The position numbers and the translations under genes are program-made. This document shows, piece by piece, positions 2,403-24,932 of a stretch of DNA of 34,714 nucleotides. Numbering within the stretch: the stretch's first letter is position 1; the number at the start of each line of letters is the position of its first letter. This stretch comes from a virus (Duplodnaviria; Heunggongvirae; Uroviricota; Caudoviricetes): IMG/VR virus record IMGVR_UViG_2740892487_000001; one strand, written 5' to 3'. Below the pieces are notes generated by a model. It saw only the letters and a list, made by a program, of their open reading frames with translations. It was not told the origin of the DNA and did not search any database.

Positions 2403-4348
2403 ATATAAAATAAGTAACAGAACCAATTATCTCAGCATTATTACCTAGAACATTTAGTTGTACATTCATATTACCAGCGACAGATGTAGCTCCTGTAAAT
2501 GTTATGTAATTACTTTCAGCATCAACCCTAGGCAATAGCGCAGCCACAGCCGTAGTTAAGTTATTGTAATACCCAATAGATCCAACAGAAGTAGCCCCTG
2601 GTCGTGACAAAAAAAGGTAATCCACCTATCCTATAACCATCTCCACTTCCAATAATCGTTATCCCTATGTGAAAACTTGCGGTCACTACATCACCAGTTC
2701 TTGTATAACTTCCAACTTGTTTATAGTAGGAGGCATTTCCGCCTACAGTCGGAATCCAAACTCCAGTTTCTATATCACCACACGACCAGTCTTCTGCTGT
2801 TGTTAGTTTTCCAGTAACAATAAATTTACTTCCACCACCAGAATTATAAGGAACAAAAATTGGTTTTATTCTTGCATAAGTGTTACCGATCTGCTCATTA
2901 AGATCATTTCTATCAATAAGAACTTGACCATTTTCGAAGTTTGAAATCTGGCAGTCTGTTACACTCCAGTCTCTTAACTTCACATCAGCATCCATGACAC
3001 CAATAAGCTTACCAGCATTACCAATTTTTTCTTTATGCATATTTACATACACATTTCTTACCGTAACAGACTGAGGGAACAAATAATTATCAGGATTAGT
3101 TTTATCACTTAAAACAGATATTACCCAAGGTCTGTGTTGAGTACTTACTTCACAATAAAATCCATCAATAAGCGTTCCAGATGCCGCTGGTCCAAGTAGT
3201 ATTCCACCTGTAGAGTGATGCGCACTACCTCCAATTACTCGCCCCTTAACGCAGTTAATATAGGCAAAATATCCTAAATCTTGATTGTTATATGCTGCCA
3301 TGGCGCAATCTCTTATTGTAACTCTAGAGTTCCCACCATCATATGCACTGCCATCCGTTTTTTTACCAGGTAAAGAAATGAAATTACCTATTGCAATATC
3401 ACTAAAAAATGTTTTTTTATAGCATCCTTCTATAAGGATATCCCAGTTTTCAAACTGAGCATATATATCATAAGAATCCTTATTACCATAATCAATAAAA
3501 TCACAATATTGTATTTTTGGTGTAAAAACAAAGCTCTTTACCATTATTCCAAACTTTGCATTTTGACCACCAGTGAATCTAATTCCATAAATTACATAAT
3601 CACCTTGATAAAAATTATCTGCTGTTGGTTGATCTTCGTCAGTTGGATCTCCACACTTAACTGCAGCGTCAGTTCCAGTATAGTTTATTGTTGCTCCTTT
3701 AAAAGAGTATAAAGTAACAGGTCTAATTAAATTCAATGACTCGCTAATAAGATAATTTCCATCTGGAAAGTACACGGATACTGGTGGAGAATATTTAGGT
3801 CTTGTGTTAACGTAATCTTTAAGTTTGAGCACCGCAGCATCATCATTCGTGCCATCACCTTTAAACCCAAAGTCTTTCGCGCTCACAAAATCTGCATTTT
3901 TATCGTGCTGTGCTCTCTCGATTGCCATAGAGAGGGGTTGTTTTACACGAACAACTGAATCATCAACTAATAATGGCCCATTTTCAGATAGCAATCTTTC
4001 CTGAAATTGATCAGGGTCATATTTCAGCACATTAGGGAAATAGAACTGCTGCGTGCCATACGCATCATATACAGCCATAGAATGGCCTTGCACAGTTACG
4101 AATTTGGCAATCTGCCCGTTATATACCGGATATCCAGCAGCGTTAATGATGATTGGCTGTGCAACAGAAACGTGAGAGCCGTCTTCGTTTTCCACATAAA
4201 CCTGAATCTGGTTTTCAGGATTTACAGGGTCAGTGTCAATTTTACCGATATAAATTTTGCCATTGGCTACGGCTTTAAAAGAACGAGCCATAGTGAAGAG
4301 TTGCGAAGGCATGCTTACCACAACATTGGCATTTATTGAATCTGTCAT
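2401..4348 (-). CDS. Tailspike protein: P22-like head-binding N-terminal domain plus a different beta-helix-like receptor-binding/depolymerase domain; frame broken at A7 (2608-2614)
   Basis: N-terminus [60 protein letters not shown] closely matches the P22 gp9 head-binding domain as I recall it; the rest diverges. ORFs 2561-4393 and 2401-2625 join if the run is A6. Confidence 0.85.
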
Positions 4349-5054: not shown

Positions 5055-5957
5055 TCAGTAGTTATGTACTGAAGGAGGTAATTCTTTATTCTTAAGTCTC
5101 ATCCATGCGGAAAGATTCGTTGGTCCGTCTGGCTCATTAATATCAACATCTCGTGTGTGGTTTATTAAAACGTCTCTCGCCATTCCGATAACATACGAGA
5201 ATTCATGACCGTAGTCGTAGCATCTGCCGGAATAGTTCGATTGAATTTGTTTTAATGCCGGATACAGTTCGCGGAATAATGCCTGTGAGCGGTTGGCATA
5301 ATCCCATAGCCATACAAGGCTGTTTGCTTCTTTTGCAGAAAGCTCGTTGGTTTTCTTCTCTTGTTTGCCGATGAACTCGCCTTCAAGCACTACCCTGTGG
5401 ATGTACTCTACTGCTTGCGGTATCTGAGATGAATCAAGCTCTTCAATACTTTCCACGTTGAAACGCTGATGAATCATTGCATAAGCTTCTGGGTACATTA
5501 GATGCTTTTTGCTGACTAGCATATTTACAGCATCACGAAGCGGAGTCCTGTCATCAACAGATGTTTTCTTACGTGCATTTTCTGCCTTTCCCTTCGTCCA
5601 GTAGTCATGCAGCACAGTAAAGCATTCTTCCTGGTACTGAATCAGTTTATCGCGGATGTCAGCACGAACTTTCTCAGGGTTGATGCTGAACAGCCATCCA
5701 TTTAACTTCTTCAAAGGAAGGCAGAGTAGCCTACGAAGCTTACCATCAGCGGCAACCATGTTCATATGAACACAGTTGAATTTGCTAATCTGCTTCATGA
5801 GTTTTGTTTGCTGCGTTGACCAGCTCATTCCAAGGTTTTTAACGATTGGCTTCATCGCAACATATGCAACTCCGGCAGTCATGGCGGTGATAATCTGCTG
5901 ACCATTGAAAGGTACGTAAGAGGTGTTCACTGCTTCTAAAATTGCTATACTATTCAT
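5055..5957 (-). CDS. ant: Antirepressor Ant (P22 immI type; N-terminal part conserved, C-terminal half divergent)
   Basis: From the ATG at 5957: [39 protein letters not shown]..., recalled as the P22 Ant N-terminus; sits directly downstream of arc as in P22. Confidence 0.85.
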
Positions 5958-6025
5958 GTTGGTTTTTCTCCACGAATTTACTGACAACAGAAGCCCTGAC
6001 TGTTCCCGCAGTTGGGGCTTCAACT

Positions 6026-6187
6026 TTACGCGCCAATACGCCCTTCCTTCTTAAAGCTGTCCATTACTCTCTGATAAATCTCAGAGTTAACAGACCGACC
6101 ATTCTCTTCCGCCACCTTGCGTACCAAATCCAATACTTCTTTAGGCCACCGCAAATTGAACTGCGGCATTTTGCTCATTCCTTTCAT
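6026..6187 (-). CDS. arc: Arc repressor (ribbon-helix-helix)
   Basis: [53 protein letters not shown] is near-identical to P22 Arc as recalled. Confidence 0.95.
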
Positions 6188-6277: not shown

Positions 6278-6532
6278 ATGGCTAGAGATGATCCGCACTT
6301 TAACTTCCGCATGCCTTTGGAAGTAAGAGAAAAATTAAAATACAGAGCAGAGTCAAATGGTAGATCAATGAACTCAGAATTGTTGCAAATCGTCCAAGAT
6401 GCTCTATCGAGACCATCTCCTGTAAAAGGTTATCGCAATGAAGCTGAACGATTAGCCGAGATGCAGGCTGAACAGTTCAAGTCTGTGGTATTTGAGACAC
6501 TTAAAAACATGTATGGCAAGGATGCAAAATGA
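6278..6532 (+). CDS. mnt: Mnt repressor (ribbon-helix-helix)
   Basis: MARDDPHFNFRMPLEVREKLKYRAESNGRSMNSELLQIVQDALSRPSPVKGYRNEAERLAEMQAEQFKSVVFETLKNMYGKDAK matches P22 Mnt as recalled. Confidence 0.95.
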   Translation: MARDDPHFNFRMPLEVREKLKYRAESNGRSMNSELLQIVQDALSRPSPVKGYRNEAERLAEMQAEQFKSVVFETLKNMYGKDAK

Positions 6533-7847: not shown

Positions 7848-9694
7848 CTACTGCCGGGTCGCTTCGTTAGCTAAGAGCGGGCGCACGGCAGTAGCAGCCT
7901 GATTTAGCGCTCTTTCATAAGCTGGCGTTCCAGCTTTAGTGTTTGCCAGACGTAAGAGCGCATTCCTTGCTGCTTTGGACTCATACAAACGCATCATTGC
8001 ACCGAAACCAGCCTCAAGCCCCATTGATACGCCAAGAGTCGCAGTTGCGCCAATCGTCCTTATCCTGTTGGCTTGAGATTGCCCCGTCTGAGTTACTACA
8101 TTTGCGGTGTCTGATCTTGCTGTTTGCTGTAGAACTTCATGAAGAGCATCAAGTTCTTTCATGTGCTTTCCAGAAAAAATAGTGTTGTAAATTTCACCGC
8201 CTGACTGAGATTTCAGCTTATTAACTTCCGTGATGAACTTGGCTGGAGAGTCACCGGCCTTTTCCGCTATTTTGCTGACGTAAGCTGCACGCATAGCATC
8301 TTTCCCTTTATCATCCAATGCGCTCCAGATTCGTTTCACGTCAGATGGTTTTCTGCTTAATACAACGGTATTTATAAGTTCAGGACTGGCTTCACTGTTT
8401 GCCTTGTTGAGCTTGTTAGCAATGTTTTTATTAAGCACCTTATTATAAACGTTTGCATAATCGGAATTTGCTTTAAGGTATTTTGCTGCGTCTGACGCAC
8501 CGAGGTTTTTTGCAACTGCGTTACGAAGGTCTTTTGACATTGCATTCTCTACCATATTGGTAGCTGCTTTTGCCTGGTTGGGGAAGACCATAGCATCTCC
8601 CTGAACATTAGATCTAAATGCTGTTCTGTGCTGACGCAATAGATCAAACGTAACATCCAAATCAGTTGCAGGGTTTGCTAATTCTTCACGTAGGTTACGC
8701 AAGGATGTAAGCAGGCTTTGATTGGCTGAAGTCCCAAGCCGTTCCTGTCTTGCGATCGCTGTATTCAGAGCATTCATGGTATTTGTGGTATCAACTGCGG
8801 CATTACCCATTTTATTGGTGACGTCATTGATAACAGCGCCAGCAGCATCCTTCCGCCCCCTTAACGTGGTGGTCAGAGATTTCACCACATCATCAGGGTT
8901 GTACTCACCAAAACGGTCAAAATAATTGCTTACCAGCTTACTACGCGTTGCATATTGCTCCGCTCGCTTTGAGCCTGTCCCGAGCAAAGCCCCCTCGGCA
9001 TCCTGAGTAAGGCCGCGAGTGAAAGCATTTTTCGGCGGGATAACATCAGATGTCATTGGTGTCACACCCATTGATTCTGAGGTGGCAATTTTTTTTTTTT
9101 CGCTACTTCTGGCGCGATATCGCCTTTTATAGCCGTTATTCCACGCCCTATTCCCTTTGCTGCTGCGGAAAGAACACCCTGAGCGGCAAGGTTAACTCCG
9201 GCATTTATGGCTGCATTTTGCGCGAAATCACCTTTCTGGTTTGCGGCTTCTGCCAGTGATCCAATAGCCATGCTTCCTGCCGTTCCAACTCCTGGAACTA
9301 AATACCCGCCAATTGTTTCTCCAGCTTGCGCATAAGGGTCTGTCGGTCGATCGACAGGGCGATAAACATCATCCAAAACCTTGGGACCACCAAGACCCTG
9401 GCTGATTGCATTAATCAGACTTGCGCCACCCTGCAATACGTCAAATGGTATGTTTACCAGACCACGACCAGCCTGCTCTGCAATTTGCCCTGCACTTTGA
9501 CCACCTGTGAGCCAATCGCCAGCTTGTTGCATCAATGATGGTTCTTCCTGTGTTGGTGCATTATTGGCCTGATTAACTGTTTGTTGCTGAACAGCCTGAC
9601 CAGCAAAATACTCATCAATGGCGGTGCCAATATCTTCGGTGCTCGTACCATCAGGAAAGGTAAATGTCTTACCGTTTGCAGTTACTTTCATCAT
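7848..9694 (-). CDS. Ejection (injection) protein gp16-like; frame broken at the T12 run 9089-9100 (A-run encoding KKKK on the coding strand)
   Basis: N-terminus [32 protein letters not shown] resembles P22 gp16; ORFs 9062-9694 and 7848-9071 join with a length change in the homopolymer. Confidence 0.8.
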
Positions 9695-14687: not shown

Positions 14688-15165
14688 TTATTCGCTCCCG
14701 TTATCGCAAGGTTCCTTCCGGTGGAAGTAATTCCAACCGTTCCACTTCGCCAACTGGTTACCACTACCAACAGGCATACGGTTTGGATAACCGGACTTAC
14801 ATTTAGCGGCTTTTGCTCTGTCCATTGCAGACAGTTTGACGAGTCGCTCTTTCCCGTATCTGGCAGTGGTTATAAGTTTTGCAGGCGCTTCCAGCGCATA
14901 ATCCGGTGCAATGCGGCAGGCAAGGTTGAAAATAACAGCATTGATAGCGTTATTTGATAAACCGTGCTCATCGCCCGGATCTGGAGCGACATCTGCATCA
15001 GCGAAAATGTAGCCAACGCTGATACCAGGTGACACATCACCGCCAAGCCATTCAGCCATCATCATTTCAAGGTCGTTGACGCCGTCTTCCATAGACTGCG
15101 GTTCGACATCGGTTAACGTGGCATTTGATGCCACACCGAGCTTACGTAATGCTGCAAGGACTAAA

Positions 15166-15188
<23 letters not shown>
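14688..15188 (-). CDS. Tail accessory / head-completion protein gp4-like
   Basis: From the ATG at 15188: [33 protein letters not shown]... matches P22 gp4 as recalled. The upstream (SQ)n extension in the track ORF is the alternative frame of the hexamer repeat. Confidence 0.85.
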
Positions 15189-15438
<250 letters not shown>

Positions 15439-15450
15439 GCTTGTCTCCAG

Positions 15451-15474
15451 ATAAAAAAGGGAGCCGAAGCTCCC
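15451..15474 (-). terminator. Intrinsic terminator-like hairpin immediately downstream of the coat gene
   Basis: Minus strand reads GGGAGC-TTCG-GCTCCC followed by T6, starting 9 nt after the coat stop codon. Confidence 0.6.
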
Positions 15475-15482
15475 TCTGGTTA

Positions 15483-16778
15483 TCACGCAGTCTGGTTAGG
15501 CAGACCAACACCAATTGCCTCTGGTCGTACAGCACATGCTGAATACCACACAGCAATACGGCACTTACCAGACAGAGTGTTGATATCACCCTGCGTTGCG
15601 AAGATGCCGTTAACACCAATGCCAGGAATGCTGAAGGAAGAAGTTTTCATGCCCGCAAACAGTTCATGGGTTACCGGGATCGGCTGAGACAGTAGGCGGA
15701 TTGAGTCATCAGCCCAGAACACGTTAGCGGTGGTTGTTGCCACGTTCAGAACGTTTACCGGAGTGGTATCAGCAAGAGATGTGTTTACATTAGCGTAAGC
15801 CTTCTCTTCTTTTGTCAGTGACGCGTCATCCAGTGCAATCGGTTTCGGCGTGATTTCGATGTGAGTACCATCGATCACACGGGTGATTGAGAAAGTCGCA
15901 TCATCAGTCAGCACGTTCTTCGCCATCTGAGATAGGAATTTCACACCAGTGAAGCTGATTTTGTCGCCGCGCTTAAATCCGGTGGTGGAGGATACGGTCA
16001 CCGTTGCAACACGGTTGTCGACGTTCTCTTTGTTACCATCAGTATCAAGGGTGTATGCCTGCGGCTTAAACTTCTGCGCACCAGAAACAGTTACACCAGT
16101 AGCGGTTGACTTGGTAACTGCAGGAAGTTTCGGTGAGCGAAGAATTTCATCAAAGCCAGCAATCTGACGCTGAATAGTACCGTTGCGATAAGCTTCTTCA
16201 GGAACGCGCCCAAAGATGTCACCATCTACCAGGTTGCGGCCTGCTTTGCGGTAATCGTCAGGGTTCAGGAAGTAACTGATGCCCATGTCGCGGTTGAGTT
16301 CGCGGGAGAACATCAGGCGCTCTGCATCAGACACAAAATCCCAGCCAGACAGGCCAGTAGATGGACCAATTGCGCGGGTATCGTGAACAACAAGTGAGCC
16401 CATTTCAGTTGCCTGTTTGGCAATCGCTGACTCAATGTTATTCGCCAGTTTTTTGGCAGATGCCTGGATGCGGCGACGGTAAGAACGCTCATCACGCAGG
16501 TCATCTGCACGAAGCTCGAAGAAATCGTTATCCGGATCACCCATGTTGCATTTCACGGAGAGTTCCAGAATCCCAGTAGCGTTGCCAGTTAAATCCCAGC
16601 CAGTCTGAGTTGGCGCTTCCTGCTCAACAGGCATCCACACGGTGTTGCTTGAACGTTGCATGGATTCTGCCGGAGGGGTGTATTTTGTCACTTTGGACGC
16701 CATTGGCGTCAGGTTCTGGACGGTTTCGATGATTTCATCCAGAGCATACGTGACCAGTTGACCTTCATTTAATGCCAT
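15483..16778 (-). CDS. Major coat protein (P22 gp5-like)
   Basis: [54 protein letters not shown]... with C-terminus [14 protein letters not shown] matches P22 coat protein as recalled. Confidence 0.95.
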
Positions 16779-19868: not shown

Positions 19869-21369
19869 TTAAGTTCTCCGTGCGATGGGCCTGATTGGGG
19901 CTGGTATCTTTTTCTCTTTTGGTTTTTTGATGTCGCGCATCATTTTTGCGAAGCGGCGCATCATGTATGCATAGCGAACGGCTGAGAGAACGTCATCGTT
20001 AAGCTTGACGATCTTCCCGTTTTCATCACGGTGATAGAGGCGGAACTCCTCAAAGAATGGCTCACAGGTGTTGAATACTTTGAAGCGTCCATCGAGCATC
20101 ATGTCGCGCAATTCAGTGATGCCAGGCTCAACAGCATTACCGCCATCAGGCCATGTCGCATGCTCCTGCAACATCATAAAACCAGCGTCCGCGTACTGCC
20201 CTTTAAGCTGCTCACCGCCGCCCTTCTCGTGCTGGTTTCCGTCATGAGGCCATGCGGTTGGCACTTTATGCGCCCAAGATTTAACGGCTCCCCACGCCTG
20301 AACGGCTGTTTTTTTCTTTCGCCTTCCACACGCGTGAAACGTAGATTGTGTCTGCGTCCTTATCCCACCAAAGCTGAACCTGCGCCTGCGGGTGATCCCA
20401 TCCGAAATCCATACCGCCAATTACGTAAAAGTGATCAGGGCACTCGAACGGCTGACACTTAATCGTCTCTTCCGGTATCTGGAAGATTCGCCCGCTACCC
20501 ATCGTAGGAATACCGCGAGCACGCGCCTCTCTCTCATGCTCAGGATAGGATGCGATGATTTGCTCTTTCTGCTCGTCGGTGTAGTGCTCAGCGTCATAGA
20601 TGGTCATGTTGACCACTTTCTGCGACTTGCTGGGATTCTTCAGGAACTTGGTAACAACGTCAGACATCCCCATCAGCGGGGTAAACGTCAGAATTGAGAA
20701 TTGCCCGTATTTGTTGGTACGGGTAAGCCCTTCGCCATAAATGCTGTATGGTGGTTCTTCGTCAAACCACACACCGTGGATTGTGTCACCCTGCCAGCGA
20801 GCACGGCCTTGCGAGTATGGTTTGAAGTAGCAGATTGAAATACCATCTTCAACGCCATCAGCCGTGTGATGCTTAACCAGAAGATGATCAACAAGGTTCG
20901 GAAAGAAAGGAGACTTCTTCCAGCTAATGATGTCCTCTTTCGGTATGGAACCGTAGCCTGGCTCACCATTCTCTTCGATACGACCGCACAGGATGCGTTG
21001 AGTCGTTTTGGTTACAGTCTCGTTTGTCTCTCCACCAATCCAGAAGACAACAGGCTCATAGAAACGCTTACCTTTCCACTCACCGCCATATTTACCATCA
21101 GCAGGATAGCCTTTTGTGCCCGGATAACGACCGGTAAGGTGAAACGCGACTTCAGCAGCACCAGTAAATGACTTACCAAGCTGGTTACCAGCCATAAAAC
21201 ATCGCTCTGGATAGTCATGCCCGGCGTCGATGAACTCACGCTGCTTGCTGTATGGCGTAAATTCATATAGCAGGTGTGTGTTCCGGTAGTTCTCTTCTTC
21301 TTCGAGTAGCTCGAGCAACTCGATTTGCTCTTCGTCGCTCAGGTTATCAAGAATCGCGTCCAGTTCCAC
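19869..21369 (-). CDS. Terminase large subunit; frame broken at T7 (20309-20315)
   Basis: ORFs 20281-21369 and 19869-20420 join if the run is one base shorter; position and size match the large terminase. Confidence 0.85.
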
Positions 21370-24306: not shown

Positions 24307-24703
24307 GTCTTACCCCCAATAAGGGGATTTGCTCTATTTAATTAGGAATAAGGTCGATTACTGATAGAACAAATCCAAGCTACTGTGTTTAGTAATCAGA
24401 TTTGTTCGTGACCGATATGCACGGGCAAAACGGCAGGAGGTTATTAGCGCAACCTCATGCCACCCGCTTTCACGAAGGTCATGTGTAGAAGGCCGCAGCG
24501 TAACTATCACTGATGAATTCAGGATAGCCAGTGGCTACGGCTCAGTTTGGGTCGTGCTGTTGCTGGGCGGCGATGACGCCTGTACGCATTTGGTGATCCG
24601 GTTCTGCTTCCGGTACTCGCTTAATTCAGCACAACGGAAAGAGCACTCAATGCATTTAAGCCAAGCCCTATAAGGGAGAATGCTCTTACCTGTTGCACAG
24701 ATA

Positions 24704-24897
24704 TAAAAAATCCCGAAACCGTTATGCAGGCTCTAACTATTACCTGCGAACTGTTTCGGGATTGCATTTTGCAGACCTCTCAGCCTGCGATGGTTGGAGT
24801 TCCAGACGATACGTCGAAGTGACCAACTAGGCGGAATCGGTAGTAAGCGCCGCCTCTTTTTATCTCACTACCACAACGAGCGAATTAACCCATCGTT
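24704..24897 (-). ncRNA. Lambda-type 6S RNA (pR' leader transcript terminated at tR')
   Basis: Span from the predicted pR' start to the tR' hairpin (CCCGAAAC...GTTTCGGG + T-run at 24704-24760) is about 194 nt, matching lambda 6S RNA; sequence matches lambda as recalled. Confidence 0.7.
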
Positions 24898-24932
24898 GGG
24901 TCAAATTTACCCAAGTTTATTCAAAAAGTCAA
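24897..24932 (-). promoter_or_regulatory. Late promoter pR' with overlapping Q-utilisation (qut) region
   Basis: Minus strand TTGACT (24927-24932), 17-bp spacer, TAAATT (24904-24909); flanking sequence matches lambda pR' as recalled. Confidence 0.85.

Follow-up and report, generated by a model that had tools for sequence, protein, structure and literature searches.

A hairpin and U-tract directly after the coat gene: a conserved, terminator-like RNA element in the late operon of P22-like phages

The hairpin that directly follows the coat gene in this viral genome appears, judging from its sequence, to represent a conserved RNA element, of the intrinsic-terminator type, that P22-like phages carry. 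A hairpin at this place was present in 275 of 276 P22-like loci (36 reference or species-level loci and 240 viral loci), with coat identity down to ~25%, and a T-rich tail was retained in 266 of the 276. The reading that we favor, with a probability of roughly 0.5, is that leaky termination at the hairpin and/or its protection of a 3′ end skews late mRNA in favor of scaffold and coat. The hairpin would also stop RNA polymerase that lacks the Q modification. The analysis covered the window, that is, the whole 34,714-nucleotide stretch of DNA in the IMG/VR record IMGVR_UViG_2740892487_000001, in which the genes from ~2.4 to 25.6 kb lie on the minus strand.

A post-coat hairpin as such is already known, with annotations in P22, L, and HK97 and a discussion in the literature. 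The P22 record (BK000583) carries a putative stem_loop at 6102..6119 after gene 5 and likens its location to that of the stem-loops in HK97 and lambda, and the phage L record (MW013503) places a terminator (6356..6392) at the same point, the end of the procapsid module. The terminators of the L element were predicted in silico by Zaworski et al. (G3 2021; PMC8022706), who named partial termination or the stopping of un-antiterminated transcription as the options and wrote that the roles "are not known." Therefore, the termination-based ideas put forward for the window in an initial annotation are not new and had already been offered for the orthologous L element (PMC8022706). Our search of the literature for 3′-end mapping, read-through, or half-life data on this site in any P22-like phage returned none.

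The element of P22 and L and that of the window are orthologous: they share the strand, the position (5-9 nt past the coat stop), the layout of stem, tetraloop, and U-tract, the place in the late operon, and the genes that follow, namely the same phrog_1175 ORF and then gp4. Differences lie in (i) the stem, which is GGGAGC/GCUCCC in the window and GGGGC/GCCCC in P22 and L, a compensatory G-C to A-U change; (ii) the U-tract, which is an uninterrupted U6 in the window as opposed to UUUCUU; (iii) the downstream ORF, which in the window is the allele with an (EP)9 repeat, unlike in P22 and L; and (iv) the Q type, which is the lambda type in the window and P22 and the phage-21 type in phage L.

Read along the coding (minus) strand, the sequence past the coat stop codon TGA (15485-15483) runs UAACC-AGAGGGAGC-UUCG-GCUCCCUUU-UUUAUCU-GGAG-ACAAGC-AUG (Table 1). 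The GC core of the hairpin (15474-15459) consists of GGGAGC (15474-15469) paired with GCUCCC (15464-15459) around a UUCG tetraloop (15468-15465), and A-U and G-U pairs extend this 6-bp core to a stem of 9 bp (15477-15469 with 15464-15456). The distance from the stop codon is 9 nt to the GC core and 5 nt to the extended stem. The U-tract lies directly 3′ of the GC core, with its first three U doubling as the 3′ end of the extended stem. The hairpin has the stem expected of an intrinsic terminator (~5-14 bp, GC rich, with a loop of 3-8 nt, on the transcribed strand), and U6 at 15458-15453 has the position expected of the U-tract, immediately 3′ of the stem. The initial annotation had described a GC-rich hairpin with T6, 9 nt past the coat stop, at 15451-15474; these coordinates do correspond to the core hairpin plus the U-tract, and the features were correctly named, the one omission being that the element lies on the minus strand.

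The gene upstream had been called the coat gene, and this is confirmed by an identity of 73% to P22 gp5 and of at least 99% to the coats of IME10, APC_JM3.2, and Dewey. Its stop codon is separated from the next ATG by a spacer of 44 nt, which, among the ORF coordinates checked, is the only sizeable intercistronic gap of the head-assembly block; from terminase through gp14, neighboring genes either overlap or lie no more than 13 nt apart. The layout of stop, hairpin, U-tract, Shine-Dalgarno sequence, and ATG, with a spacer of 36-57 nt, recurred in 34 distinct loci. Next comes a small ORF with an (EP)n repeat that overlaps the start of gp4 and is annotated as hypothetical in relatives; its family, phrog_1175, also covers P22 orf69, the corresponding ORF of Sf101, and the N-terminus of phage L orf186 (PHROGs). 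The window has the order phrog_1175 and then gp4 that is seen in P22, L, Brookers, Sf101, and APC_JM3.2, and downstream of the hairpin, the gp4 homologue is the first gene for a low-copy virion protein.

Table 1. Features of the coat-gene region and of the late-operon control region in the window
Feature	Coordinates	Strand	Basis
Late-gene antiterminator Q, lambda type, 207 aa	24975..25598	-	Pfam PF03589 5.8e-58; structures 7UBM, 4MO1
PR′ + qut/6S region + tR′ hairpin (CCCGAAAC...GUUUCGGGAUUUUUU)	24700..24932	-	Promoter scan, sequence, lambda identity
Coat (major capsid), P22 gp5 homologue, IME10/CUS-3 type, 431 aa	15483..16778	-	ORF list, tblastn, alignment
Hairpin AGAGGGAGC-UUCG-GCUCCCUUU	15456..15477	-	Sequence, terminator scan, RNA fold, orthologues 275/276, covariation
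U-tract U6 (15458-15453), then A + U (15452-15451)	15451..15458	-	Sequence
Shine-Dalgarno GGAG of small ORF	15445..15448	-	Sequence; 6 nt before ATG (15438), 4 nt past U-tract
Small ORF, 90 aa, phrog_1175, P22 orf69 homologue	15166..15438	-	PHROGs 4.6e-33
Head-completion gene, P22 gp4 homologue	14688..15188	-	Pfam P22_Tail-4, 6.3e-58

Several further observations concern the small ORF. Its (EP)n repeat is encoded by a perfect hexamer tandem repeat, (GAGCCA)9, at 15238-15291 (minus strand), which behaves as an in-frame VNTR, with 0 to 13 copies in a set of 83 relatives whose coat genes are nearly identical. A mosaic breakpoint is located at the hairpin (window ~15160-15455) in 17 contigs, in which identity to the window is 99-100% for the coat and stem, ~80% for the small ORF, and 95-99% for gp4, and in which an inserted middle domain gives rise to a 195-aa ORF that resembles phage L orf186. 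In some deposited records, the start of the post-coat gene lies before or within the hairpin region (the Brookers CDS at 2792..3046, and gene 6 of phage AH02 from 2491). Those deposited starts that fall inside the hairpin are probably wrong, as the conserved GGAG and ATG past the U-tract and the N-terminal motif M..MLYK.G...VWG suggest true starts further downstream.

In a consensus scan from 8 to 24 kb, the post-coat hairpin was the second-best terminator-like site. The top-ranked match, at 9373-9401 (minus strand), has a poor tail and a stem in which only 5 of the 12 pairs are GC, and it sits inside a 210-aa ORF (9062..9694) and not between genes. A 71-nt RNA fold over the hairpin gave -21.1 kcal/mol (z = -2.6), and 3 of 200 shuffled sequences folded as well. 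The plus-strand fold of the site was less distinctive (z = -1.5), and there the extended stem is followed by GGTTATCA, with 3/8 T and no T-run; the element is therefore unidirectional, and a bidirectional terminator was rejected for the window. The phage L record (MW013503) annotates terminators on both strands, by in silico prediction. A generic scan of the whole region revealed no excess of terminator-like sites (22 found versus 16.1 +/- 3.8 expected), so the case against chance rests on conservation.

An RNase III site of the kind represented by the T7 R sites or lambda sib, which needs ~20 bp or more, was rejected, the stem being only 6-9 bp in the window and 5-9 bp in orthologues. With Rfam at the gathering threshold, the sole match in the whole window was the sar RNA, located elsewhere, leaving the hairpin unmatched, and a permissive scan of 15350-15560 yielded only a 13.6-bit match, to the terminator end of CrcZ, for which the gathering score is 95. 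The hairpin belongs to no curated Rfam RNA family.

The statement in the initial annotation that the late operon is transcribed under Q antitermination agrees with what is encoded upstream. The Q protein is of full length and of the lambda type, matching the lambda Q structure (PDB 7UBM) from end to end with E = 5e-137. The promoter PR′ reads TTGACT-17-TAAATT (24932-24904), and the PR′/qut/6S/tR′ region is 94% identical to lambda 44509-45192 and to the annotated promoter and Qut site of HK630. With Q, PR′, qut, and tR′ all found upstream, the hairpin can be placed ~9.4 kb into a late operon under lambda-type Q antitermination. A lambda-type Q region joined to an otherwise P22-like virion module is ordinary lambdoid mosaicism. 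Elsewhere in the window, a full-length sar antisense RNA (5958-6025, plus strand; 91 bits with Rfam) confirms a P22-type immI region.

Other strong terminator-like sites on the minus strand of the operon were found at 5037-5018, directly after the ant-like gene and likewise with a UUCG loop, and at 2402-2373, after the tailspike gene, where a 13-bp stem ends the late operon. Across the ~10 kb from the terminase through the ejection-protein genes, there is only one such hairpin-plus-T site. Within this stretch, one extra A in a homopolymer run at ~20309-20315 (A7 in the window versus A6 in phage APC_JM3.2) breaks the large terminase gene (19869-21369, minus strand) into two ORFs, Terminase_6N and Terminase_6C. 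The split reflects either an error of sequencing or a frameshift that inactivates the gene, and the latter would make the prophage defective.

To quantify conservation, we used a 36-locus set made up of four reference phages (L, P22, Proteus phage Brookers, and Sf101), the window, and 31 loci taken at one genome per species from Escherichia, Shigella, Citrobacter, Tatumella, Symbiopectobacterium, Yersinia, Rahnella, Pantoea, Xenorhabdus, Rosenbergiella, Erwinia, Providencia, Pseudescherichia, Proteus, Morganella, and Kluyvera; the set spans ~16 enterobacterial genera. Under a fixed criterion (a perfect stem of 5 bp or more, including no fewer than 4 GC pairs, that lies within 45 nt of the coat stop), the hairpin was found at 35 of the 36 loci, the remaining locus differing by one G-U pair only, and 32 of the 36 had a T-rich tail as well. 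When the same criterion was applied to the remaining same-strand flanking DNA (~246 kb), four hairpin-plus-T sites were found.

The viral set comprised 240 IMG/VR loci collected with IME10-type, Sf6-type, and Proteus-type queries, the last of these reaching 67-100% identity. A mixed coat alignment used as the viral query had returned near-identical relatives only, hence the separate Sf6-type and Proteus-type queries. The hairpin was present at 239 of the 240 viral loci and a T-rich tail (at least 5/8 T) at 234, and the hairpin was kept even beside Sf6-type coats, which are only 24-26% identical. Among orthologues, the stop-to-stem distance varied from 2 to 21 nt, within the ~30 nt that define a post-coat stem-loop; the nucleotides between stop and stem are unrelated between lineages and their spacing is not kept, whereas the stem is. 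As for distant P22-type coats, the hairpin also occurs in Pseudomonas phage AH02 and in Sortsne and is absent after the coat gene of Ralstonia phage RSK1, where the genes overlap. The conservation after P22-like coat genes that the initial annotation had proposed to look for is thus strongly borne out.

The pattern of substitution distinguishes the stem from the tail. In an alignment of 29 distinct sequences, 90% of stem cells were paired, versus at most 70% in slid-partner controls, and compensatory double changes occurred in three of the seven stem pairs (GC to AU and back in mid-stem; AU, GC, or UA at the base; and CG to UA at the pair closing the loop). Double-change cells numbered 16, as opposed to 4.4 in shuffles, and 0 of 500 shuffles scored as high. 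Stem pairing is therefore upheld across relatives through compensatory changes. Among 82 relatives with coats at least 99% identical, variants fell in the loop (UUCU, UUUG, UUAG) and the tail, never in the stem. The tail held a median of 6/8 T, with at least 5/8 T in 27 of the 29 distinct species-level sequences; it is mostly interrupted among orthologues (UUUCUU...), and the U6 of the window is among the best. Such a tail has the look of a real but often moderate intrinsic terminator.

These data point in two directions. The U-tract is kept almost as well as the stem, which suggests a real terminator for some polymerases and not merely a stabilizer. A Pantoea locus, an Erwinia locus, and five viral contigs have kept the stem and lost the U-tract, which points to a role of the hairpin beyond termination. 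On these comparisons, the hairpin itself is under somewhat stronger constraint than the U-tract.

How such an element might act follows from its place between genes with very different product requirements. Each virion holds hundreds of copies of scaffold and coat and about a dozen or fewer of gp4, gp10, and gp26. In the mechanism that we favor, RNA polymerase loaded with Q at PR′/qut would mostly pass the hairpin, and the downstream genes would still be made. In the transcript, the hairpin would mark a stable 3′ end of the terminase-portal-scaffold-coat segment, arising from residual termination and/or from the stem blocking 3′-to-5′ exonucleases after cleavage further downstream. Steady-state mRNA, and hence protein, would be tilted toward scaffold and coat and away from gp4, gp10, and gp26. 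A polymerase lacking Q, whether it had started at an internal or spurious promoter or was transcribing in a lysogen, would meet the hairpin as an ordinary terminator. The read-through, the 3′ ends, the RNA stability, and the protein ratios in this scheme are all steps that we infer.

Support for differential expression comes mainly from the repeated placement of such hairpins after high-copy structural genes in unrelated phages. In lambda, AUGGCCC-UUCG-GGGCCAU with a U-rich tail lies 2 nt after E and shares the UUCG loop of the window, and a hairpin with U7 follows D (both checked in the sequence); among the lambda head genes, intergenic hairpin-plus-T sites occur after D and E only. The HK97 record has a "terminator, putative" at 5192..5213 after gp5, the major head gene, and more around the major tail gene. 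In both phages, as in the window, a GC-rich hairpin with a U-rich tail follows a high-copy head gene of a Q-antiterminated operon and is itself followed by a Shine-Dalgarno sequence and a gene; the capsid and downstream genes are unrelated in sequence, however, so this is a positional analogy and not orthology. A broader rule that hairpins follow every high-copy gene is only partly true, as the lambda tail genes have a hairpin after I and none after the major tail gene V.

Comparable placements extend beyond the lambdoid phages. In SPP1, a predicted terminator (8775-8815) straddles the stop of the major capsid gene 13 (which ends at 8777) and is followed by a small ORF and then the adaptor gene (PMC6316719). 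In T7, Tphi immediately follows gene 10 (major capsid), and RNA-seq coverage falls downstream (PMC6938266). Like the window hairpin, Tphi stands directly after the gene for the most abundant virion protein and is leaky, with the downstream genes still expressed; it differs in acting on T7 RNA polymerase, without antitermination, and in being established by experiment, whereas the element described here is predicted.

A second kind of precedent is bacterial. [quoted passage not shown] Such stem-loops, for example those of the Clostridium cip-cel operon, are proposed to block 3′ exonucleases and set stoichiometry, and they are kept among related operons; most SRPS stem-loops (28 of 33 in that study) have no U-run, in contrast to the conserved U-tract of the phage element (PMC4423207). 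In that it follows coat, the phage hairpin shares their position, at the 3′ end of the cistron with the highest expression. A high copy number of coat is established P22 biology.

Several points weigh against this reading of the element as one that favors scaffold and coat. A stabilizer alone has no need of a well-conserved U-tract. The link to high-copy genes is imperfect, since lambda V has no hairpin, lambda I has one, and RSK1 has none. Protein ratios could also be set mainly by translation initiation rates. In addition, polymerase modified by Q-lambda strongly resists intrinsic terminators, so there may be next to no residual termination.

The strongest competitor, which we consider possible but on the unlikely side, is that the hairpin is only an insulator, having no effect on Q-modified transcription and terminating polymerases that bypassed PR′/qut. 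Transcription from internal or spurious promoters or from lysogenic read-in would then be blocked, leaving the downstream virion and ejection genes solely under Q control. Conservation of the U-tract with the stem is what a working terminator would show, and the P22-like prophage BTP1 has four mapped coding-strand start sites inside the capsid cluster (PMC7067206). This function is also one of the two options in the phage L paper (PMC8022706). For large conjugation operons, terminators combined with processive antitermination are proposed as a filter of spurious transcription (PMC8955417, PMC8191782). In the pLS20 ConAn system, only polymerase that was modified where the operon begins passes the terminators inside it, and suppression of spurious transcription is likewise proposed; there, several terminators are spread along the operon and the antiterminator is a different one, whereas the window has a single site tied to coat. 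A generic insulator need not adjoin the major capsid gene, yet the hairpin recurs there in P22-like phages, lambda, HK97, SPP1, and T7. Moreover, one site in the ~10 kb from terminase to the ejection-protein genes is sparse for a filter, and several lineages have the stem with the U-tract lost. Insulation and differential expression are not mutually exclusive.

Those same lineages make tenable a variant in which the stem, and not termination, is selected, acting as a barrier to decay and so delimiting a long-lived mRNA for scaffold and coat that is cut from the Q-antiterminated late transcript. We put this forward tentatively and regard it as rather doubtful. If true, SRPS stoichiometry control would have a phage example in the late operons of P22-like phages and, by analogy, of lambda, HK97, and SPP1. 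Free P22 scaffolding protein is known from the older P22 literature to down-regulate its own synthesis post-transcriptionally. The 3′ structure could, more speculatively, be part of the RNA target in this autoregulation.

A role in translation is improbable. Here, the hairpin and U-tract would control translation of the phrog_1175 ORF, and might do so by uncoupling it from coat translation, by occluding or exposing its Shine-Dalgarno sequence, or by providing a U-rich landing site for ribosomes. The U-tract does abut a conserved GGAG/GAGG 4-8 nt before the ATG at all 34 distinct loci, and the minimum-energy folds of the window and P22 pair the coat stop region with the U-tract and part of the Shine-Dalgarno sequence. 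However, the predicted pairing of the Shine-Dalgarno sequence is intermediate (median P = 0.6), falls almost to zero in Sf6-type loci, and involves a partner that is not conserved. In lambda, HK97, and SPP1, a hairpin of this kind precedes genes that are unrelated, and the terminator-like geometry of the conserved stem would be left unexplained.

Still harder to sustain, and in our view very improbable, is a function at the DNA level, with the inverted repeat serving as a linker or recombination hotspot between the procapsid module and a variable small-ORF slot. The breakpoint that coincides with the stem in the 17 mosaic contigs fits this idea, but breakpoints would be expected to survive at any non-coding junction, functional or not, and homologous recombination works poorly on 14-22 bp of shared sequence. 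The compensatory changes keep pairing and not sequence, and the T-run is strand specific, occurring on the coding strand only; this covariation and strand asymmetry favor a function at the RNA level.

Chance, in the sense of a functionless GC-rich palindrome beside a T-run, would agree with the lack of regional excess in the generic scan but is effectively refuted by the occurrence of the hairpin at nearly all loci across coat types that are ~25% identical, by the covariation of a stem that stays invariant among close relatives while loops and tails vary, and by the scarcity of comparable sites in the flanking same-strand sequence.

The window adds no new type of element. What is added here is the quantified conservation of the P22-like version, with covariation, together with the observations that the stem can outlive the U-tract and that the element coincides with a mosaic breakpoint. 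Tailed phages make hundreds of coat and scaffold proteins for every dozen portal or head-completion proteins, from one late transcript, and to our knowledge, the means by which lambdoid phages achieve this stoichiometry has never been worked out. The hairpin lies in non-coding sequence and is easily mutated, and as a hairpin that follows the major capsid gene in P22-like phages, lambda, HK97, SPP1, and T7, it is a candidate part of the answer to how this stoichiometry is reached.
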